Below, piece after piece: positions 639 through 22,839 of a DNA stretch of 64,000 nt. The stretch lies in IMG/VR virus record IMGVR_UViG_3300032893_000022. One strand, written 5' to 3'. Below the pieces are notes generated by a model. It did not search any database. It was not told the origin of the DNA and saw only the letters and a program-made list of their open reading frames with translations. This stretch comes from an uncultured virus (IMG/VR IMGVR_UViG_3300032893_000022) (lineage: Duplodnaviria > Heunggongvirae > Uroviricota > Caudoviricetes). The position numbers and the translations under genes are program-made. Position 1 is the first letter of the stretch. Each line of letters begins with the position of its first letter.

Positions 639-877
639 TCTTCCTCCAGGGCTTTGCGGGCATCACCTAATAAAAAATTCATTTGATCCTTCCAAACCTT
701 AAACATTTCGGGTCTCAGATTTATTTGAGCTTCAAGGGTTACAAATGTTTTTTCGTATTTCTCACAAGCCTCAGTGAGCCGCTTCACGCGAGCGATTAGC
801 CATGACATAGATTCATGATGAACATAATTAGTATTTATATTATCCTCAATTTCCTTAAGCCGTTCACTTGGTTTCAC
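635..877 (-). CDS. Hypothetical protein, paralogue of 4695..4961
   Basis: Start reassigned to GTG at 877 (GTGA overlap with upstream stop); shared KPSERLKEIE...WLI.RV..LT...KALEEE. Confidence 0.7.
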   Translation of the reverse strand: MKPSERLKEIEDNINTNYVHHESMSWLIARVKRLTEACEKYEKTFVTLEAQINLRPEMFKVWKDQMNFLLGDARKALEEE

Positions 878-1230
878 AATTCTATAACTCCCCAATAAGT
901 TTCTGTCGAATATACTACCTTCTTTATACCAGATTTTCTAATAAAGTCAAGACACGTTTTACATGGTTTACTTAATCCTCGATTATTTCCCTTTGTAATT
1001 CTATAAACATAGATAGATGCCCCGCGCAATAAATTCTTCGGGGCTTTAATTATTGCATCAAACTCTGAATGTATATGTTTAAATGCGTTAGGGGCCTTGG
1101 GATGAGTTTTATTTTTGTTATAACCCATTGCTATAACTTTGTCTTTTAAAGTGATTACAGAGCCTATGCGTTGCTCACAGACACTTAAAAGCGCCATGTC
1201 TCTAGCCTTATTCAGATGCCTATTATTCAT
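874..1230 (-). CDS. Zinc-dependent cytidine/deoxycytidylate deaminase family protein
   Basis: HSE (HxE) and PCKTC (PCxxC) motifs; ATG at 1230 preceded by GGAGAG. Confidence 0.85.
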   Translation of the reverse strand: MNNRHLNKARDMALLSVCEQRIGSVITLKDKVIAMGYNKNKTHPKAPNAFKHIHSEFDAIIKAPKNLLRGASIYVYRITKGNNRGLSKPCKTCLDFIRKSGIKKVVYSTETYWGVIEL

Positions 1231-1267
1231 TGTTTTTTCTCTCCATTTGTAGTACAATATAAATGAG

Positions 1268-3030: not shown

Positions 3031-3867
3031 TTATTTTTTAAGTCCCTTTTTAATAGTATTTAGAGTATCACCTAGAATATTTGAAAGTGACCACACATAT
3101 TTAGAGAAGCCTGTTTCTTCGGCTCCCATACCTTTAACCATCATCTTAAACCAAGGTTCATATTTATTATGATATTTAACTTCCAACAAGAAGTTTTTTT
3201 CATTAGAGAATCTATCTCTATAATCTTGAACATCATCCCATAAATCTTGATTACGAAGATCTTGAATTGTAGCTAAATCTATAAGTCTTAAAGGTCTCCA
3301 TTTAATATCTTGATCCATTGTTACTCTAAACTTTTCATCCTCTTGAAATGCATATCGTTTGTACATTATATCTACAACAGGAGTACATTTATTTAATGTT
3401 AATAAGTAGTTAATAATGTTTGCATGTTTGGTAACTTCATCTTTGGATACTTCTTCATTAGCCAAATAAAGATCTTCATCAATTTTTATTTGATTATGTT
3501 TCATTGTATATTCATATCCAAGTTCACTTAGTTGAACTCTTGTCTTTGTTGAATCTCCATTATCTTTGGATTTAACTTCCATAAAGTATACACCATTATG
3601 TTCACCATTTGGATAATATGTTCTAATGCGGATTTTACGTCTTTCACCAACACCGTTAAGATGTTGTTTTAAAAACGTTAAATCAGGACTATCAAAATAA
3701 ATTGATCTATTAATTGTATACTCAGCTCCAGGATCATGACTATAAGCCGGTATATGACTTTCAACTATTTGTTTGGTTTCATTTAATTTATCTTTTGGAA
3801 GGATAAATTTGTCTTCGATACGTTCTTTATCTATTTGAGATGACTCAGGTTTTCCGTTTCCTATCAT
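3031..3867 (-). CDS. VTC-domain (CYTH-like tunnel fold, polyphosphate polymerase family) protein
   Basis: SIYFD, RRKIRIRTY, EVK, YKR, RVTMD, LLEVK, FSKY; AGGAG RBS. Confidence 0.85.
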   Translation of the reverse strand: MIGNGKPESSQIDKERIEDKFILPKDKLNETKQIVESHIPAYSHDPGAEYTINRSIYFDSPDLTFLKQHLNGVGERRKIRIRTYYPNGEHNGVYFMEVKSKDNGDSTKTRVQLSELGYEYTMKHNQIKIDEDLYLANEEVSKDEVTKHANIINYLLTLNKCTPVVDIMYKRYAFQEDEKFRVTMDQDIKWRPLRLIDLATIQDLRNQDLWDDVQDYRDRFSNEKNFLLEVKYHNKYEPWFKMMVKGMGAEETGFSKYVWSLSNILGDTLNTIKKGLKK

Positions 3868-3901: not shown

Positions 3902-3972
3902 AAATGATAGAAGCCCCAACACCCGTACGCTTTCTATCTTGGATACCCTATCATCCGTATCCTTACCACTAT

Positions 3973-4047
3973 TGGGGTGATCGTTGGAATTTGCATCCAA
4001 ACTACCAGGGCCACAACCTAGCGTGCGAACTGTTACACTACGATCAC
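3973..4047 (-). tRNA. trnH: tRNA-His (GUG)
   Basis: Acceptor GTGATCG/CGATCAC, D stem GTGT/GCAC, anticodon stem CTAGG/CCTGG with loop TT-GTG-GC, T stem TTGGA/TCCAA, discriminator C, encoded CCA. Confidence 0.92.
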
Positions 4048-4062
4048 ATCGTGTAAATGAAT

Positions 4063-4147
4063 TGCGTGTAGATGGTCTCTCACTTGGAGCGGAAACCTCC
4101 CTTGATTGGGAGGACCGGATCTCCTCAGACCTTGCCTCCTACACACA
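4063..4147 (-). ncRNA. Candidate structured RNA (bulged rod) 5' of tRNA-His
   Basis: Nested helices TGTGTGTAG/CTACACGCA, GGTCT/AGACC, GGAG/CTCC, CGG/CCG, CCTCCC/GGGAGG; GC-rich in an AT-rich genome. Confidence 0.55.
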
Positions 4148-4149
4148 AA

Positions 4150-4431
4150 CTACAATAACTTTTTAAATTTATCCATTCCAAGACTTTCAATAGTAAACAT
4201 AATTCCATCTGTAGCTAATCCAGTATTTCTGGATATATCTTCAGCCACAGCTAATCTACAACCTTTAAGATATTCAATTTCAATATCCTCATGAAACGAT
4301 GAATCATATTTTTTCAATAACTTATCCTTCATTTTGGATAATTGTTTTATAGGCTTAAGTGTTTTAAAATGTCCTTTATTAGATTCTAAATAATCTAATA
4401 TTCTCTCTTTATCTTCTGGGTCAAAATACAC
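4150..4431 (-). CDS. Hypothetical protein
   Basis: ORF with GGAG RBS, co-oriented with neighbours. Confidence 0.65.
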   Translation of the reverse strand: MYFDPEDKERILDYLESNKGHFKTLKPIKQLSKMKDKLLKKYDSSFHEDIEIEYLKGCRLAVAEDISRNTGLATDGIMFTIESLGMDKFKKLL

Positions 4432-4512: not shown

Positions 4513-4698
4513 TCAAAAGTCAATACAGTGATGTAATTTTGCTTGTTGAAGAATCCTTCTTGATAGTCCTTTAGAATAATCAATTCTACTTGGTAACGCC
4601 ACACTTATTACACCATTGGAAAATATCAAGTGTTTATTAGTTCTTACGTGAACAAATCCATTTTGTTTTAAAACTCTTTCCATTTCACGTCTTTTCAT
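4513..4698 (-). CDS. hicA: HicA-like mRNA interferase
   Basis: 61 aa; RVLKQNGF..VR...H.IF...VALP......KG..RRILQQA matches the HicA pattern. Confidence 0.75.
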   Translation of the reverse strand: MKRREMERVLKQNGFVHVRTNKHLIFSNGVISVALPSRIDYSKGLSRRILQQAKLHHCIDF

Positions 4699-4961: not shown

Positions 4962-5467
4962 ACATCACTCCTTAAATATTTTATTGCTTTTTTTAAAATA
5001 TTAATATTATCTTTAGCATTTCCTAAAAGGAAATTACAATTTTTACATAATAAACCTCTAACTTTATTAGTTTTATGACAATGATCTACACATAAATTTT
5101 TCTTAGATTTCAAATTACATATTAAACATTTATAATTTTGATTTTTTAACATTATAATATATTCTTCTATAGTTATTCCATATTTTTTCTTTAATTCATA
5201 TTTTCTATTCATTTCTTTTACCTTATGTTTATTATTTTTAGCCCATCGATTCTTGATTTTATTGTGTCTTTTTAAATTATTTTTATTCCATCTTTTATTA
5301 ATATAGTTAATATGTTCTTTATTTCTATTATACCATTCTTTATCTTTTTGTTTTTTACATTGTTTACAATAAAATCCTAATCCGTCAGGAGAACTTTTGT
5401 TTCGGTTAAAATTAGAAATAGATTGAGGATTTTTATTTAAACATTTTTTATTACTACAGTTTTTCAT
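4958..5467 (-). CDS. Endonuclease VII-family putative homing endonuclease
   Basis: CLIC...VDHCH...RGLLCKNCN. Confidence 0.9.
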   Translation of the reverse strand: MKNCSNKKCLNKNPQSISNFNRNKSSPDGLGFYCKQCKKQKDKEWYNRNKEHINYINKRWNKNNLKRHNKIKNRWAKNNKHKVKEMNRKYELKKKYGITIEEYIIMLKNQNYKCLICNLKSKKNLCVDHCHKTNKVRGLLCKNCNFLLGNAKDNINILKKAIKYLRSDV

Positions 5468-5724
5468 TCTAATTTTTTGCGTACCTCGTCATAAAAAATG
5501 ACGCCTAATTCCTTGAATTTACTTTTAATTTTTCCTTTAGCCAAAGTAATAGTTCTTTCTGTTCCCGATGCTAAAACTTGTCCAGAGCCTAAATCTGTAA
5601 CCACATAATGACATCCATCATCTTTGATAATTACATGACCATTAATAACTTTTTCTCTAGCTAGTAGTTCTTTAGTTGTGTGGACATTACCTGCTTCGTT
5701 TTTAGTAAAAATTAACCTAGTCAC
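5464..5724 (-). CDS. Hypothetical protein
   Basis: GTG start with AAGGAGG RBS. Confidence 0.7.
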   Translation of the reverse strand: MTRLIFTKNEAGNVHTTKELLAREKVINGHVIIKDDGCHYVVTDLGSGQVLASGTERTITLAKGKIKSKFKELGVIFYDEVRKKLE

Positions 5725-6358: not shown

Positions 6359-7034
6359 ACCAATCCGTTAATGAAGATTTAATATAATTTTCTTTACTTT
6401 CTATAATTTTTATTATATCATCTTCAGATATCAAATTCAAGTTCCAAGCATCTAATCCACAATCTATCATGTTTTTATATTTTTTATAACGACCATGAAG
6501 GTGACCATGTAAAAGAAATAGTCCTTCGTCTTTAGGTCTAAGATTTAAATACCTTTGGTCGAACCCAACTTCTTTCGGAGTTGCATAAGGTAAATGGTGT
6601 AATAATACATTGACGCCATTCTTGAACTTGAGTTTAAGTGTTTGATGAACAGCTTGCCAGCCGTGTTGTATATACGCGTCGCATCGTCTTTTATAATTTT
6701 CTCTGTGTTGTTGTATAGATAGCCCGCTATTTTCTTTTGGAGGATGGTCAAAGCAATAATCGTGATTTCCAGATATAAGAATCTTATTACCTTTAAGTAA
6801 TGGAATAATCGTTTGACTCCATTTTTTATTAAGAGAAAAATCCCCAAGTACATATACAGTGTCTCCTTCTTTTACAGTATCATTCCAAATCTTTATTAAA
6901 GCTTTATGCATTTCTTCTAAATCTTTATAAGGTCTATTACAATAGTTAATAACATTTCTATGACCGAAATGCAAATCAGAAGTGAACCAAGTCGTAGGTT
7001 CTTTAAAAAAGAACCTTTTAATCTTTTCAATCAT
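6339..7034 (-). CDS. Calcineurin-like metallophosphoesterase
   Basis: FTSDLHFGH, LGDF, GNHD, HLP, LHGHLH. Confidence 0.9.
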   Translation of the reverse strand: MIEKIKRFFFKEPTTWFTSDLHFGHRNVINYCNRPYKDLEEMHKALIKIWNDTVKEGDTVYVLGDFSLNKKWSQTIIPLLKGNKILISGNHDYCFDHPPKENSGLSIQQHRENYKRRCDAYIQHGWQAVHQTLKLKFKNGVNVLLHHLPYATPKEVGFDQRYLNLRPKDEGLFLLHGHLHGRYKKYKNMIDCGLDAWNLNLISEDDIIKIIESKENYIKSSLTDWYETNKS

Positions 7035-7518
7035 TTTCATCTCCAAGATAAACAATGTTTGGATTTAACCATTGACGTAAAGGAATAGTCTCCATTGTAT
7101 AGGTTCTGGGAAATTGTTCTGGAGGGTCTGGTATTCTAAAGGTTACTAATTCATTAGGTTGAGCAGCAGTCGTATCCCCGGTTATATTAGTAATTGTTGT
7201 AGTGAATCCTCTTCTAGGAAAAATAGGAAGTATACGTTCATAATTCATAAAATCATATAATTTTTCTTCATAAAAATTCTTTTCTTTAGTCTGTATTCTA
7301 TTCAAAGCATCAATCTCTTTTTTCATCTGTCACCTTTATTCTCATAAAAGGTTCTGGAGGCTGATTTTCAATATCCTTATTATATATCAAAGCTTTTGTG
7401 GCTATACAACTGCCACATGGCCCATAGCCATATTCTGGATTAGGTTCACAATAACATTCTTCTTCAGCTATAACTTCTAAAGCGTCAATACAATTTTGAA
7501 TTATTAATTTATCTTTAT

Positions 7519-7947: not shown

Positions 7948-8199
7948 TTATTCATAATAATTTTCCTCATTCTTTTTGAATGCATCTAATAATCTAGTTC
8001 CAGATTTTCTTTTAAATTGTATAACCTTTTTAAAATAAGATAAAGGATATTCTCTAGTTAATCCTTCTAAGTATACTACATTGTGGGTAAAAGAAAATTC
8101 TTTTATGATGTATTCTTTTCCAAGCTTTACTTTTCTCCAGTCGTCTTTTACTCTTATACATTTTATTTTATCTCCTTTTTTATATTTAATTTTAAACAT
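7948..8199 (-). CDS. Small protein with KxGDK N-terminus and degenerate C-terminal motif (member 2)
   Basis: KKGDKIKC...RLLDAFKKNEENYYE. Confidence 0.7.
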   Translation of the reverse strand: MFKIKYKKGDKIKCIRVKDDWRKVKLGKEYIIKEFSFTHNVVYLEGLTREYPLSYFKKVIQFKRKSGTRLLDAFKKNEENYYE

Positions 8200-8929
8200 T
8201 CTCTAACTCCTTAATAGCATTGACATAAGATTCTAGAGTCGTATTTTCTAAAGCCGGAGCGGTGTTCACCTCTAAAACTCTTGCCTTTCCATTCCCTAGC
8301 ATCACAATATCGACAGCGCCAAAGTCTAAGCCAAGGGCCTTTACGGCATCGACAGCTAGTGTTTTAATGGACTCTTTAACAATCGCATTCTCACGACAGA
8401 ATACCCAACCATTCTTATAACTTCTAACATACTTATCATATTCTAATTCATTGATATCATTACGTTTTCTTTTTTGAACATAATCAATAACTTTTCCATT
8501 AAATACATGGACTCTAAATTCATATTTCTTTGGAAAGTATTTAACATAAACCTTTGAAACCGTTGGTAAATCTTCAATTACTTTACAAACTGTAATACCT
8601 TTTCCGCTATGACTTTCAAGTAAACTTCTGGATAAAACAATATAACCTTCTTTAATCCATTCAACTGCTTGTTTATATGAAGTTGTAAAGTCTGGGACAG
8701 GAATACCAGCATCTTTCATTATTTTAAATGCACGAAGTTTATTAACAGCATTGTTAACAGATTGTGGATTATTTAATACTTTAAACGTGCCAACGATAGG
8801 AGCTGCGCATCCCCAGTTAATAGCTAAATCTTTACGGAATTGCAGACGTTTAGTGATCATTGGAATTTGGAGATTGTAACACAGATTTCTAGCGGAAGAA
8901 GATTTTCTTTTATATGGAATTAAGAACAT
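8192..8929 (-). CDS. ATP-grasp peptide ligase (phiEco32-like/RimK-like)
   Basis: INWG, NKL, EFRVHV, LGLDFGAVD, VLEVNTAP. Confidence 0.9.
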   Translation of the reverse strand: MFLIPYKRKSSSARNLCYNLQIPMITKRLQFRKDLAINWGCAAPIVGTFKVLNNPQSVNNAVNKLRAFKIMKDAGIPVPDFTTSYKQAVEWIKEGYIVLSRSLLESHSGKGITVCKVIEDLPTVSKVYVKYFPKKYEFRVHVFNGKVIDYVQKRKRNDINELEYDKYVRSYKNGWVFCRENAIVKESIKTLAVDAVKALGLDFGAVDIVMLGNGKARVLEVNTAPALENTTLESYVNAIKELENV

Positions 8930-15862: not shown

Positions 15863-17515
15863 TTAAACTGCTCGTACAATCTTAAAATTCTCAATAGAAA
15901 CATGTTCTCCAAAAGGTAAAGATGATACTTTATTCCAAGGAAAGTTTACTTTATTAAAGAATTTAAGTAATTGATTGTAAGATACAGGATTTTGGGTAAT
16001 TCTATACTTATCACAATAAATATGATACATAAATTCTCCCTCAAATTAAAGGTTTAAAAAGCTTCGGGATTAATTCTTTCATTTACATCAAACGTATAAG
16101 AATTTGGCTAAGATGTAAACATAAATTATAATAATGAATTAACATATTTAATCCTCAATATTATGATATATCCTTATTGAATTCAATAAGTTGAAAAGGT
16201 TTTCTAGTTCTTAAGACTTCAATGTTCGCATAATGTTGATCAAGTCCAGCTTGATTAGTTATTAAACTACCCTTTAAAGCTTCCTCTTTAGACATCACTA
16301 TTCTATTTTGTTTATAGGTATCCAAAGAATATACTTTAGCTCCTATATTAGGTTGTTGAATAAATTGATTGTTTAAATCTAAGTTATTTTGTTTTTTATA
16401 GCATTCCCAGCAAAAATACTCTTTCTCACAATTACACATAATTAACTCCTTTATTTAATCTTCAAACTTTACAGTTACTTGCATTTTTTTAGGTTGAAAA
16501 ATTCTACAAAGAGTATTACCAAGTTTACATTGTCTTTCAATTTCTTTTGCGGCCACCTTCAAATCATTTGTGGCCAAGATAGGTCTCCAATTCCAATAGC
16601 AACCAAAAGATTCCATCACTATATATTTTTTATTCTTTATCCATACAACTTTCTTCATAATTAACTCCTATTCCTTTTACGTGAAGCTCTTGCAACCTTG
16701 CGTTTTTGTTTAGCCTTTCTTTTGGAAACATGATACTTGGTATTATTATTAAGATTAGTTAATTGATTTAACTGTAGAGTTTTGCTTTGATGTTGCATAG
16801 TTTTATGGAATAAATCTTGAATAGATTCAAAGTGTTTAGGCGCGGGTTTAACTTCTTCTTTCACAGGCTCGACTTCGGGCACAACAGGAATAACTTGTTC
16901 TTGATTTATCATATAGGTCCCCTTTGTTTAAAATACTAATAAAAAGATAATAACAATAAGTAAAATTGTAACCATATAATTCTCCTAAGTTTATTAACTT
17001 GCTTTCTTTTCAGATAATTTTAAATCTTGGATAAGCTTTTTAATTTCCTCTATATTATGTTCTAACCAAGCTACGTACTCCTCATTTATATTATAGCTAT
17101 TGCGCTCTTGAAGATGAGCATTGAGTTTACTTTGAAAGGTTATTAGATTGCTAGATAATTCTTTGTATCCCATAAATCACCTCACATAATATCATATTTA
17201 ATATTATCTCCAAATGTTTTCCATAACATACGAACAGCTTTAACTCTATTTGTAGTATTAACTTTAAAGAAAACCAATTGACCGTGTTTTATTATTTTGA
17301 ATATTGTCATATATTTATCCTGCTTTCTTTGTTACACTACTAAATTTATGAAACCCATGTTTTTTGTGGTGTTTAATATGTTCTTTAGGAGTAAGCATCA
17401 CAATAGTTTTAAATCCTTCATTCCATAAATTTTGTAAATGCCAATCTATTGTTTCTATGGATTTACCCACTGGAATAGAATGATGTTTATGCATTATTTT
17501 AGATTTAATTTTCAT
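15863..17515 (-). other. Array of very small early hypothetical genes
   Basis: Closely packed short ORFs, most with GGAG/GAGG-type RBS (e.g. 15863..16030, 16161..16439, 16455..16658, 16661..16912, 17315..17515). Confidence 0.6.
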
Positions 17516-17518
17516 AAT

Positions 17519-17586
17519 ACCCTCATCAGGCATGGAAAAACCATGCTACAACGCTCTATTGGGGGAATAGAGGCGTTGTTTCGGGT
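17519..17586 (-). ncRNA. Type II hammerhead ribozyme
   Basis: ACCC-GAAA-CAACGC[loop]GCGTTG-TA-GCATGG[TTTTT]CCATGC-CTGATGA-GGGT; intact core, GUA cleavage triplet. Confidence 0.9.
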
Positions 17587-17647
17587 TACCTAGGGTGTTT
17601 ACTTAGGCAGCTTTAACAGTGCTATCCTTGATTAATTGCTTGCGCAA

Positions 17648-17908
17648 TTATGCTGCTTTTACAGTACTGTCTTTAATATTAAGCAATGCCTTATTAGCTT
17701 CAGCAAACTTAACAACTTCAGGCATAACCTGTGCAAGCTTCATAAGCTGTGTATAATAAAGGGTTACAGGAAAACGACCAAAGCCATAGATGCTGATTGC
17801 ACCTTTCTCTGAAACCTTCCAGCTAAGGCTACGTTCTTTCTTAGCTTTTAATGCTTCATTCTCGGCTTTAATTCGAGCCAATTCAGCAACCAATTGTTCG
17901 TGAGTCAT
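17648..17908 (-). CDS. Small conserved-type hypothetical protein (coiled coil + KVSEKGAISIYGFGRFPVTLY)
   Basis: ATG at 17908 with CAGGAG RBS; I recall the motif from uncharacterised bacterial proteins. Confidence 0.75.
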   Translation of the reverse strand: MTHEQLVAELARIKAENEALKAKKERSLSWKVSEKGAISIYGFGRFPVTLYYTQLMKLAQVMPEVVKFAEANKALLNIKDSTVKAA

Positions 17909-17948
17909 GATATACTCCTGGTTTGTAATTTGACTATGGATAACTGCC

Positions 17949-18015
17949 AAGTCTCATCAGCATAGCTTAATAGCTATGGACAGAGAGCTTATTTCTAAAC
18001 TCTCTGTTTCGACTT
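17949..18015 (-). ncRNA. Type II hammerhead ribozyme
   Basis: AAGTC-GAAA-CAGAGAG[loop]CTCTCTG-TC-CATAGCT[ATTA]AGCTATG-CTGATGA-GACTT; intact core, GUC cleavage triplet. Confidence 0.92.
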
Positions 18016-18398
18016 TCTTTACAATATAGGGTTAGGATATTGCTACATCCAATACCTATCTTCCTAGACTACGCGATATAAACATCACTTATAGACTTAG
18101 GTCTAAGTCATGATCTAGCTTATACCCCTCATTCCAGGGAAATTAACCGTACCCTTAATCTATTAACTAGCTCTTATCAGGCTTGGCATTGCTGGCGTCA
18201 TGGGGGTTCGACATGTTTCAGTCTACAGCCCTGTCTGTTTAACGAGTCCGATTCCTATCGCATATCACTCGACAACTGTCTGGCTCTATGCTATCCTGGC
18301 AACTCGTACCAGCAAGGTGAATTGCTTCGAGGGAGTTAAGGTCTACAAGCTCTAGGTGTATGTCTTACTCTCTGTCGTGCATCACAAACGAGTTACAT

Positions 18399-18415
18399 TG
18401 CATCGTGTGTGCCAA
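18399..18415 (-). promoter_or_regulatory. Sigma54-type -24/-12 promoter candidate
   Basis: TTGGCACACACGATGCA (GG-N10-GC); exact IHF consensus AATCAAGTACTTA at 18422-18434. Confidence 0.6.
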
Positions 18416-18690
18416 CTGTGAAATCAAGTACTTAGCACACTTCGCATTGTCAAACTTCTATACAGAATTCCAGGAAATATAGTGATTCCAATATGTTAAG
18501 AAAATATACAGTGTCAAAATCGTAGACACTTGCATTTTTGCATATATGTAAATGGTGAAAGGGAAGGTATGGTAATGGAAAATAGAATAGGTTAGGGATA
18601 AAGAGTATATATAAATTCCAATTCCCCATTCCCAATTCTCTCCTCAAAAATCCTCACATTGCCAACAGGCATATGTATACAATCTATATA

Positions 18691-18706
18691 TGCAAGATTC
18701 ATACCA
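18691..18706 (-). promoter_or_regulatory. Sigma54-type -24/-12 promoter candidate
   Basis: TGGTATGAATCTTGCA (GG-N10-GC); IHF-like TTTCAAGAACTTA at about 18725-18737. Confidence 0.6.
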
Positions 18707-18751
18707 TCTGGAATAGAATAATAATTTCAAGAACTTATGCATATAGATTAT

Positions 18752-18781
18752 GGGGGTATGGGTAGGGAGGGTATGGGGGGG
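18752..18781 (+). other. G-rich tract with G-quadruplex potential
   Basis: GGGGG-TAT-GGG-TA-GGG-A-GGG-TAT-GGGGGGG. Confidence 0.55.
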
Positions 18782-19030
18782 TAGAGGACAATGATACATG
18801 TTGCCTAGTGACTAGTGTAATCCTAACATTTCATATATATAATATAGAAACATTTAAAATCTCACACAAAACTATACATAATATCCAAATTAAGCGTATA
18901 ATAACTTATAAACTTATTTTTTATACAAGTTAAGTGTTTATATTCATTAAGGTGAAAAGTCTTCTCTATAAGCCTATTAGAAGGTTTAAGATATGTTATT
19001 ATAGACCTTTGAATAATAACAACTGTATGT

Positions 19031-19555
19031 ATGGTATATTCAAAATTGTTTAAACTTATGTATGAAATTCCTGGAATAGGAATATTCATGTTAAAGAATG
19101 AGAAAAAGAAGTGTGTTTATATATTTTATTCTAAGAATCTTATAACATCATTATCCAGAAATGTTAGAGAAATGAAAGATAAGGTTCATGTATATAAACC
19201 TTTAAATTCGGATATAAGAAATTGGAAATTTGATATTATAGAAACATTATCAAAGAATGATACATTTCTTGATATTTCATGTAAAATGCAGTATCATAAA
19301 GAATTATATAAACAATTAGGATATGAAGTTAAAACAACAAGGATTATGGAAGTAAGATTTAGAGTAGATATTGGAGATGATTATAAGATTTATTGTAAAC
19401 TTATTACAAAAGGTTATAAACAACATATTGTAGGAATCTTTAATAATATGGAAGAAGCTAATGATTTCATACAATTATATAAACAAATGAAGATAATTAC
19501 ACCCATATATGCAAATAATGAATTAACTTGTAATTATATGAGGAATAAGTCTTAA
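19031..19555 (+). CDS. Degenerate GIY-YIG-like protein
   Basis: GIFML...CVYIFYS.NL spacing resembles GIY...YIG.S. Confidence 0.45.
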   Translation: MVYSKLFKLMYEIPGIGIFMLKNEKKKCVYIFYSKNLITSLSRNVREMKDKVHVYKPLNSDIRNWKFDIIETLSKNDTFLDISCKMQYHKELYKQLGYEVKTTRIMEVRFRVDIGDDYKIYCKLITKGYKQHIVGIFNNMEEANDFIQLYKQMKIITPIYANNELTCNYMRNKS

Positions 19556-20190
19556 TGACTTTAGCTGACGCTAAATTCAAGCTTCGGTCGCAATGTAATC
19601 ATTGCTCCCATATAAATGTGTTAAAAAATAATTTTATTCAGAATGATATTATAGGGTTAACTATGTTAATTGCTTTACTGTGAAGTGAAGAAATTAACAA
19701 CTAACGTATAATTAGTTTTTCTTGCTAATTAAGTTAGCGTAATTAAACTATTACAATTAACTACGGGATAGTGTCTTTAATGTGGACTATGACCTTTGTA
19801 ATAATTTTATATCTTGTAGTTTTTCTTACACCTACCCTTATTCTCAACTACCTATTCTTTAAATATTTATATAAGCTTTATAGACAACGTCTTATTAAAA
19901 AACGTAGATCTAAATTTAAGCTTATAAAAAATTCTCCAATAAATAAATTTAAATATTGATAATTATAGAAACATATGATAGTATATAGATAATGCTTTTT
20001 ATTATATTAATGATTTTGTTTATTATTCTATTACCTATTATATTACCACCTCCAGGTTCAGAATTTACAGGTAAAAAAGATAAATCATGGTGCCCACCAC
20101 ATATTTGGATTTATGGAACTGATGGATTTCTTTATTGTAAAGAATGTCATCAAAAACCTGGATATGAAGGTAGAGAATAAAATTAAAAGA

Positions 20191-21781: not shown

Positions 21782-22368
21782 GAAAAGATGATGTGGTACT
21801 TATCCTTTGTGTTCTTGGTGTTATTGGTTATCTCCTTTTTGTATTATCATGTTTAGAAACATTAGGAATAATGAACCGAGACATTAAAAGAGTAATATTT
21901 CAACATTACAACGTTCCATTACCTAAGGAATAGATATGGAAATCAATAAAAGAGTCTGCAAAGTTTGTGGAAAAGAAAAAGATCGTATTCTTGTGGGGAA
22001 GTTTAATCACAAGGATAAGAAATATATAGATGAAACTGGTAAGAGTTGGAACGGATCTTCGTGTCCTGGATGCCATAAAGAACTTGTTCGACTTAAAACT
22101 CAATTAAAAAGATCAATAAAATGAAAAGAAGTGAAATGATCTTAAATATAGCATCAGAATTAGTGAGAGAAGAATCTAATTTCATTTCTTGGGATAAAGC
22201 TCAAATTTTAGCAGAACACGTTTTAAAACGAATTGAAAAAGAAGGAATGTTGCCTCCTTCTCAATTATTTAAAAATATTCCTTGGGGTTTTCAATGCGAA
22301 TGGGAACCTGAAACCGAAGATAGTTTTTCTGTTTCTAGAGAATCATATCAAAAATGGAAAAGAGGAGA

Positions 22369-22839
22369 ATGAATCTTCTTTATTATCCAAATATTAGTCT
22401 CACAACGTATTGTCATGAAGTTAAAACTTTTGATCATGGTATCCATATTGTTTTAGATAATATGAAAAGGATTATGGAAGAAGCAAATGGAATGGGCCTC
22501 GCGGCTAATCAAGTTGGATTAGATCTTAGGGTCTTTATAATGAAAGATCTTAAAGGAAAGATCTGGGAGTTTGTTAATCCCGTTATTATATTCGAAGATG
22601 ATGTTCAATATGAAGATGAGGGTTGTCTATCTTTTCCTGGAGTTGTAGTTCAAGTTAAACGTTCTAAACAAGTTAGTGTTAAAGCTCAAGATAGAAATGG
22701 CGAATGGTTTCATATAGGTGCTTATGGAAAAGAAGCAGTTTGTATTCAGCATGAAATGGAGCATTTAAACGGACAGACTTTTCTCAATGGGTTATCTAGA
22801 CAACAAAAAAGAGATGCATTGCGGAGTATTAAGAAATGA
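22369..22839 (+). CDS. def: Peptide deformylase
   Basis: GMGLAANQVG, EGCLS, QHEMEHLNG. Confidence 0.93.
   Translation: MNLLYYPNISLTTYCHEVKTFDHGIHIVLDNMKRIMEEANGMGLAANQVGLDLRVFIMKDLKGKIWEFVNPVIIFEDDVQYEDEGCLSFPGVVVQVKRSKQVSVKAQDRNGEWFHIGAYGKEAVCIQHEMEHLNGQTFLNGLSRQQKRDALRSIKK

Follow-up and report, generated by a model that had tools for sequence, protein, structure and literature searches.

Layout of the locus

A 64-kb stretch of phage DNA (IMG/VR record IMGVR_UViG_3300032893_000022; hereafter the window, meaning the whole stretch of 64,000 nucleotides (nt) that was analysed) was examined around two motifs, termed HH-A and HH-B, which have the form of type II hammerhead ribozymes and stand on either side of a small open reading frame (ORF), ORF1. 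The order on the minus strand is HH-A, ORF1, HH-B, and a further small frame, ORF2 (Table 1). A preliminary description of the sequence had claimed two complete type II hammerheads at these positions, with GUC and GUA as cleavage triplets, differing stems, and intact cores, and had placed the cuts at 17979/17978 and 17547/17546. Renewed reading of the sequence and a descriptor scan found every coordinate right, and the predicted cuts bracket ORF1 together with its ribosome-binding site (RBS), the interval 17978-17547 amounting to 432 nt.

Table 1. Positions of the features in the window and of hammerhead arrays in related loci (L numbers; aa, amino acids; SD, Shine-Dalgarno sequence; G+C, guanine plus cytosine content)
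Feature	Position	Strand	Basis and remarks
HH-A, type II hammerhead	17949..18015	(-)	Sequence reading, descriptor scan, fold, covariance model; stem II 18015-18011/17953-17949; GAAA 18010-18007; stem III 18006-17999/17988-17981; GUC 17981-17979; stem I 17978-17973/17966-17961; CUGAUGA 17960-17954
HH-A, predicted cleavage site	17978..17979	(-)	3' of C17979, from hammerhead consensus
ORF1, 86 aa	17648..17908	(-)	ATG start; SD AGGAG 17919-17915, six bases before ATG
In-frame duplicate of the last 8 codons and stop of ORF1 (KDSTVKAA, stop)	17603..17629	(-)	Sequence reading
HH-B, type II hammerhead	17519..17586	(-)	Sequence reading, descriptor scan, fold, covariance model; stem II 17586-17583/17522-17519; GAAA 17582-17579; stem III 17578-17566/17560-17549, C17572 bulged; GUA 17549-17547; stem I 17546-17541/17535-17530; CUGAUGA 17529-17523
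HH-B, predicted cleavage site	17546..17547	(-)	3' of A17547, from hammerhead consensus
Predicted excised RNA, 432 nt	17547..17978	(-)	Between predicted cuts; carries ORF1
ORF2, 66 aa	17315..17515	(-)	ATG at 17515
Leader, ORF-free	18016..18439	(-)	G+C 41-47% vs 23-33% around
Sigma-54-like TGGCAC-N5-ATGCA	18414-18399	(-)	Sequence word, in leader
Conserved block	18440..18505	(-)	82% identical to L102, vs 72% for ORF1
L080, bracket of type II + II	Hammerhead 3908-3971; ORF1 homologue 3995-4276; hammerhead 4277-4334		
L102, bracket	Type II 445-521; ORF1 homologue 561-824; type I 830-888		
L079, three type II	4204-4268; 4541-4600; 5120-5178		Between successive genes after ORF1 homologue; CUGAAGA core
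L030, two type II motifs			
L081, four type I	5459-5506; 6809-6856; 7305-7352; 8149-8208		Between successive genes

Anatomy and folding of the hammerhead motifs

Read as RNA, HH-A is 5'-AAGUC GAAA C-AGAGAG..CUCUCU-G UC / CAUAGC-UAUUAA-GCUAUG CUGAUGA GACUU and HH-B is 5'-ACCC GAAA CAACGC(C)UCUAUU-CCCCC-AAUAGAGCGUUG UA / GCAUGG-UUUUU-CCAUGC CUGAUGA GGGU (slash, predicted cut). Both carry the hammerhead core (C3-A9 as CUGAUGA, G12A13A14, and an A15.1-U16.1 pair), a nucleotide other than G at position 17 (C in HH-A, A in HH-B), and the G10.1-C11.1 pair that closes stem II (G17953-C18011 in HH-A, G17522-C17583 in HH-B). Stems I and III are capped and stem II is open in both motifs, which is the type II permutation. 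Stem II comprises five pairs in HH-A and four in HH-B; stem III consists of seven Watson-Crick pairs plus a G-U pair in HH-A (about 12 pairs in the fold) and of 12 pairs with one bulged C in HH-B; and stem I has 6-7 and six pairs, respectively. When each motif was folded in isolation, the three-way junction was the minimum-energy structure (z scores of -6.0 and -5.1), and 0 of 200 shuffled sequences were equally stable.

In a fold of HH-B with its flanks (17606-17500, minus strand), GAGGGU was predicted to pair with upstream ACCCU (17596-17592) and not with ACCC (17586-17583), and this alternative register would disrupt the core. Type II hammerheads typically form a pseudoknot between loop I and the 3' tail, which matters for speed at low Mg2+ (PMC3088659). 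Inspection by eye indicated a possible pairing of UUUUU in loop I of HH-B with AAAA at 17512-17509, and for HH-A only a 4-pair match that includes a G-U pair. Loop I is 3 nt long in relatives such as L018.

Chance expectation and covariance models

Both strands of the window were scanned with descriptors for the type I, II, and III topologies, and exactly two sites were returned, HH-A and HH-B, with 7/5/11 and 6/4/6 contiguous pairs in stems I/II/III. When the window was simulated 100 times with a second-order Markov model (all types, both strands), 88 matches with stems of at least three pairs were obtained and five in which all stems had at least four pairs, giving a chance expectation of 0.05 per window for the latter class. 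A relaxed energy-based scan with spans of up to 300 nt produced long-span matches equally in real and reversed sequence and was replaced by a scan for compact hammerheads, which returned 29 matches in the real sequence of 1.10 Mb of loci plus the window and none in the reversed sequence. Two further candidates, L074 4436-4556 (121-nt span, UUC) and one in L038 (expectation value (E) of 0.2), were not accepted as hammerheads.

Covariance models were built from relatives (see below) in two combinations. Model R1, derived from L012 and L018 only, scored HH-B at 32.1 bits (E of 1e-7). Model R2, derived from L012, L018, L009, and HH-B with HH-A left out, found HH-A at 43.3 bits (E of 6e-11), L016 at 42.9 bits, and L006 at 34.5 bits, with no further match at E ≤ 1 in 348 kb; with filters switched off, it found HH-A and HH-B only in the window, where the next best match had an E of 0.32. 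In an alignment of seven ribozymes, whose fitting to the covariance model somewhat favours the statistics, 98.4% of cells pair, 13 of the 18 pairs show double (compensatory) changes, the observed value was reached in 0 of 500 shuffles on any of five measures, and slid controls paired at 29-41%. The G10.1-C11.1 pair (pair 4/133) is an invariant C-G in all seven aligned sequences. Alignments of the hammerheads produced with MAFFT were structurally wrong and were discarded. Judged by these comparisons, HH-A and HH-B are genuine, conserved hammerheads.

Recurrence in related loci

Relatives were collected via the COOH-NH2 ligase (14 loci at 36-52% identity) and via homologues of ORF1 (80 viral and 80 metagenome loci, scanned by covariance model and descriptor). 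Six of the 14 ligase-based loci (L006, L009, L012, L016, L018, and L019) carry one compact type II hammerhead each, located upstream of the ligase and on its strand, those of L018 and L019 being identical. Among the loci with an ORF1 homologue, hammerheads were detected in ten viral ones (L030, L035, L042, L059, L063, L076, L077, L079, L080, and L081) and in a single metagenome locus, L102. ORF maps were drawn for six of the viral loci and for L102, and the motifs in them fill intergenic gaps on the coding strand, 0-14 nt past the stop codon (where readable) and approximately 13-50 nt before the next start.

The ORF1 family is bracketed by non-identical ribozymes in three lineages, namely the window, L080, and L102, and the ORF1 homologue of L102 is the closest relative among the loci examined (71% aa identity). 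A ribozyme located only after the ORF1-family gene was seen in L018, L063, and L079. The layout of the window, with clustered hammerheads flanking genes, is also present in L080, L102, L079, and L030, and the hammerheads within the arrays of L081 and L079 are near-identical to each other. The occurrence of different topologies (type II versus type I) at the same ORF1 boundary argues that the cut itself is what selection keeps.

The bracketed gene and its downstream neighbour

Members of the ORF1 family share the invariant core motif KVSEKGxxSVYGxGRFPVTLY. The family is very large and uncharacterised, with at least 8000 scored candidates in a profile search (all at E ≤ 0.001); among the 120 matches listed, no Pfam domain was recorded, and most were from metagenomes and some from Archangium assemblies. 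The two nearest proteins among the scored candidates, P0003 and P0030, share 92% and 84% identity with ORF1. ORF1 itself had no match in PHROG and none above the cut-off in Pfam, in which the sole match, Herpes_BLRF2 (20 bits vs a cut-off of 25.8), was located on the coiled coil and was rejected. The AlphaFold2 model (mean predicted local distance difference test score (pLDDT) of 83.7) consists of a long N-terminal helix, three strands, and a C-terminal helix. Comparison with the PDB by sequence returned a coiled-coil peptide only, and a Foldseek search with the model returned nothing at E ≤ 0.001. The best VIA-align match was the PC4 DNA-binding domain (Z of 3.4, root-mean-square deviation of 3.2 over 48 residues), which is within the tool's own noise range, followed by MoSub1 and Pur-alpha (Z ≤ 3.4), and these fold matches may be taken at most as a hint of nucleic-acid binding.

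The two copies of the KDSTVKAA-plus-stop segment at the end of ORF1 (17674-17648 and 17629-17603) lie 45 nt apart and are identical at 21 of 27 bases, all six differences being synonymous third positions. According to the alignment with L102, it is the second, untranslated copy that is collinear with the gene end there. The duplicate has the appearance of a scar left where two alleles recombined immediately upstream of HH-B. If the TAA of ORF1 were read through, 15 residues ending in the same peptide would be appended.

Downstream, the end of HH-B is separated from the ATG of ORF2 by 3 nt. The likely SD of ORF2, GAGGG (17524-17520), consists of the end of the HH-B core and the adjoining stem II strand, and is the only SD-like sequence there.

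Upstream region and phage context

No terminator-like site was found in 16800-19300, and the nearest upstream promoter-like elements lie at least approximately 380 nt 5' of HH-A, so that both ribozymes and ORF1 would probably share one transcript. One of these elements is a sigma-70-like site at 18517-18490, and the other is the sigma-54-like word in the leader (Table 1). The conserved block at 18440-18505 is a probable promoter or operator region of the leftward operon, judging from the sequence comparison. The leader between this block and HH-A is 52% identical to L102 (1-444 region), with islands that include CCATGACGC..AGCA, CTAGTTAATAG, and GGTTAAT; it belongs to an ORF-free divergent region of about 1 kb, in which G+C is raised in the proximal 400 nt. 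A sigma-54-type word, TGGCAC-N5-xTGCA (TTGAA in L102), was found upstream of ORF1 in three phages, namely the window, L102 (102-117), and L080 (3573-3588). Of 154 loci, 15 have its strict form, TGGCAC-N5-NTGC, no more than 1.2 kb upstream of the ORF1 homologue, corresponding to 0.096 per kb versus 0.017 elsewhere in the same loci.

A structured leader RNA was considered and rejected, as the z scores for the leader alone (-1.1 in the window, -1.2 in L102) give no good evidence for it. A 492-nt stretch that includes stem III of HH-A had a folding z score of -3.4, and the 39 pairs of a two-sequence consensus fold of the leader, nine of which are changed on both sides, are too slight a basis for a claim. 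When the leader was made into an nhmmer profile, it matched L102 (by construction) and, marginally, L080 (E of 0.03) only, and a pattern of conserved leader blocks had zero matches in viral or genome contigs. The sequence TCTGTATAGAAG was tried as a repeated phage promoter and discarded (79 matches with up to three mismatches vs 89 expected). Megablast of positions 16000-20000 against the phage collection yielded zero matches.

The window was recognised as phage DNA by matches to terminase, SU10/P22-like portal, major head, and tail-fibre proteins, and its leftward block contains phiEco32-type COOH-NH2 ligase, amidoligase, glutamine amidotransferase, and ATP-grasp genes. Six ORFs have a C-terminal Endonuclease VII domain (PF02945; 1806-2276, 4958-5467, 23762-24193, 43067-43570, 60313-60762, and 62607-63092) and are scattered over early-type and structural regions; so many copies suggest free-standing homing-type nucleases. 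Auxiliary genes comprise those for a VTC (polyphosphate-related) domain protein (3031-3867, minus strand), a peptide deformylase (22354-22839, plus strand), and a dCMP/cytidine deaminase (874-1257, minus strand); a histidine transfer RNA (tRNA-His) gene lies at 3973-4047.

Proposed processing of the ORF1 transcript

HH-A and HH-B are probably both functional type II hammerheads in one leftward transcript, from which they would cut out the messenger RNA (mRNA) of ORF1. Self-processing of a single-gene message is the best reading of these data because the motifs are conserved, fit precisely between genes on the coding strand, and bracket the gene in two other phages. What was observed is how the motifs are built, how seldom chance would produce them, their compensatory changes, their position between genes, and their return around the ORF1 family; cleavage in vivo, co-transcription, and effects on stability and translation are inferred. 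The start of the transcript would lie some 400 nt or more upstream of HH-A, and the transcript would run through ORF1 into small genes and the block of COOH-NH2-ligase, amidoligase, and ATP-grasp genes. During synthesis, HH-A would cut past C17979 and shed the long leader, and HH-B would cut past A17547 and part ORF1 from ORF2 and the remainder. As both ribozymes are of type II, each cut would leave hairpins on both new ends. In the predicted fold of the excised RNA, nucleotides 1-18 form a hairpin (stem I of HH-A) and the last hairpin (stem III of HH-B, 13 pairs) ends 2 nt from the 3' end.

The ORF1 message would thus be a monocistronic RNA of 432 nt that starts with a 5'-hydroxyl (5'-OH) stem-loop at nucleotide 1 and ends with a 3' stem-loop bearing a 2',3'-cyclic phosphate. 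In bacterial mRNA decay, 5'-end-dependent entry of RNase E is hindered by a 5'-OH and by a paired 5' end, and a 3' hairpin carrying a cyclic phosphate protects against 3' exonucleases and against decay assisted by poly(A). A stabilised ORF1 mRNA is plausible given the modelled ends, which would insulate the stability and translation of the message from its neighbours. The cut by HH-B would also free the weak 4-pair stem II that holds the RBS of ORF2. The preliminary description had proposed that an early transcript processes itself without proteins and yields the mRNA of the first early protein; the conservation of the motifs, their placement in the gaps, and the bracketing in two phages speak for the self-processing, and the words "early" and "first early protein" have no other basis than position.

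Evidence against processing and alternative explanations

Several observations weigh against this processing. With 20-nt flanks, the minimum-energy folds predicted for both motifs swap stem II for competing pairings. The pseudoknot between loop I and the 3' tail is not evident for HH-A and only possible for HH-B, and rates in vivo could be low. Hammerheads are absent from the fetched flanks in approximately 149 of the 160 loci with an ORF1 homologue, which shows that the gene can do without them. The public sequencing runs with this stretch consist of one DNA wetland metagenome, perhaps the one from which it came, with no RNA run listed. The search with Rfam hammerhead models, which the preliminary description had put forward as a check, did not bear the motifs out: in Rfam 15, no hammerhead family was reported in the window at the gathering score, nor at E ≤ 10 on 1.2-kb slices at the site, around which noise only appeared at this threshold, and tRNAs alone reached the gathering score in the window and five related loci. 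The model RF02276 (Hammerhead_II, cut-off of 37 bits) scored the relatives L012 and L018 at 28 and 26.2 bits and left L006, L009, and L016 unreported. HH-A and HH-B likewise did not reach this gathering cut-off, which is a property of one curated model and not of the ribozyme class. Sub-threshold Rfam matches also arise in 11 of the 14 control genomes, and Rfam is therefore no evidence for or against the motifs. The curated type II model misses a clade of environmental phage hammerheads with textbook cores, and counts based on Rfam thresholds are therefore underestimates. The silence of Rfam, the missing clear tertiary contact in HH-A, and the competing folds once flanks are included would all fit chance or decayed motifs without cleavage, an explanation that is nevertheless highly improbable in view of a chance expectation of 0.05 per window, the independent covariance-model match together with the covariation, and the recurrence at the same gene boundaries.

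Other explanations accept the ribozymes and differ in what they serve. The hammerheads could be baggage that travels in mobile gene cassettes exchanged among phages, in which case cleavage may occur without serving ORF1. Their patchy presence (11 of 160 ORF1 loci), the different genes downstream of ORF1 in the window and in L102, the scar-like synonymous in-frame duplicate of the last eight codons of ORF1 before HH-B, and the replacement of the type II motif of the window by a type I motif at the same boundary in L102 agree with such an exchange, as does the remark in Perreault 2011 (PMC3088659) that the genes so flanked vary. However, cores that stay perfect and stems that stay compensated across lineages at 36-71% protein identity need selection on the ribozyme fold, and the same gene is bracketed in three lineages; we regard mere baggage as unlikely, and it is compatible with processing of the ORF1 message, as a cassette can carry a useful processing site. 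A main role of HH-B as a translational switch, hiding the SD and start region of ORF2 until cleavage separates the two halves, would agree with the overlap described above and with the potential pairing of UUUUU in loop I just past the start codon. It is more doubtful still, as stem II has merely four pairs and the overlap is not recurrent, the hammerheads of the mapped relatives ending well before the next start.

A circular mRNA, which the preliminary description had raised as an extension of the self-processing, found no support. A host ligase of the RtcB type would join the 5'-OH at 17978 to the cyclic phosphate at 17547, giving a translated circle of 432 nt that is proof against exonucleases. 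Both ends are on one RNA, and hammerhead ends match the chemistry that RtcB accepts, as is established knowledge (PMC8782182). Yet the predicted fold of the excised RNA neither pairs its ends nor places them close to each other; the two ribozymes are unlike, and joining the 5' half of HH-B to the 3' half of HH-A would give a chimera with one stem II pair, which leaves no arrangement for ligation by a ribozyme; and the type I topology of the downstream motif in L102 implies a different end architecture. None of the 66 ORFs scanned against Pfam matched RtcB or an RNA-ligase family, the scan covering the 64-kb window of an 85-kb source contig (about 21 kb lie outside). ORF1 also has a stop codon, so that endless translation would bring no gain, and Perreault 2011 (PMC3088659) reports circular or spliced products as undetected for such arrangements. 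Circularisation is accordingly rated very unlikely. At the other end, only a small chance is given to the stronger version of the processing model, namely that selection acts specifically to isolate the mRNA of a conserved small protein with a coiled coil and a three-strand/helix part. Two elements of it share the same small joint chance: three lineages would have placed ribozymes independently on both sides of the gene (II+II, II+II, and II+I), and ORF1 would be freed from a long regulated leader, possibly with a sigma-54-type promoter, and from the downstream genes. If this were true, the pair would set the dosage or timing of one regulator-like early protein instead of serving just as generic operon punctuation, and the released leader of about 400 nt with its cyclic phosphate end could have a role of its own.

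Comparison with known systems

According to Perreault 2011 (PMC3088659), clustered hammerheads flank single genes or short blocks in prophages, which implies processing to mRNAs of operon or single-gene length; three such arrays were shown to cleave in vitro and one in E. coli, and spliced or circular products were considered, neither being detected. In a cyPhyRNA-seq study (PMC8782182), three type II hammerheads near phage-like genes were active in D. vulgaris, and a 2019 review describes the purpose of bacterial and phage hammerheads as still unresolved (PMC6765202). A limited literature search, which is not proof of absence, found nothing on the ORF1 protein family or on phiEco32-like phages with hammerheads.

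As in those prophages (PMC3088659), two intergenic hammerheads on the coding strand bracket one small gene in a phage operon, single-gene mRNA processing is proposed, and the flanked genes vary between genomes. The present case differs in that it concerns a metagenomic phage of lytic type with phiEco32-like ligase genes, that the gene in the bracket is a member of a large uncharacterised family which is bracketed in three lineages, and that the upstream ribozyme would also remove a leader of about 400 nt or longer, cleavage here being predicted. With RF02276 (Hammerhead_II), HH-A and HH-B share the core, the open stem II permutation, and the GUC/GUA triplets, whereas the typical pseudoknot is not evident here and stem III is long (8-13 pairs). 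As in viroid and retrozyme circular RNAs, two hammerhead cuts would release a unit RNA with ligatable 5'-OH and 2',3'-cyclic phosphate ends. In contrast to the present pair, however, those RNAs repeat one ribozyme and their junction rebuilds a hammerhead; here the ribozymes differ, no chimera is formed, no repeat family linking the HH-A and HH-B sites was found, and the unit is an ordinary mRNA from the operon of a DNA phage. The repeated copies of one ribozyme that mark viroid- or retrozyme-like elements are not present. Synthetic ribozyme insulators use self-cleaving ribozymes before the RBS to standardise 5' untranslated regions. Like them, HH-A would cut just upstream of the RBS, remove the upstream context, and leave a 5' hairpin; unlike them, the pair is natural, and the downstream ribozyme would also define the 3' end.

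With one small conserved gene and a ribozyme on each side, the locus is a compact test case, and natural comparison is offered by phages in which the gene is bracketed (L080 and L102), is followed by a ribozyme only (L018, L063, and L079), or stands without one (most loci). The layout has been known in phages since 2011, and the present locus is a further example of this published arrangement; modestly new are the recurrent bracketing of one conserved gene by differing topologies, the predicted loss of a long leader by cleavage, and the failure of the curated Rfam model to detect the clade.

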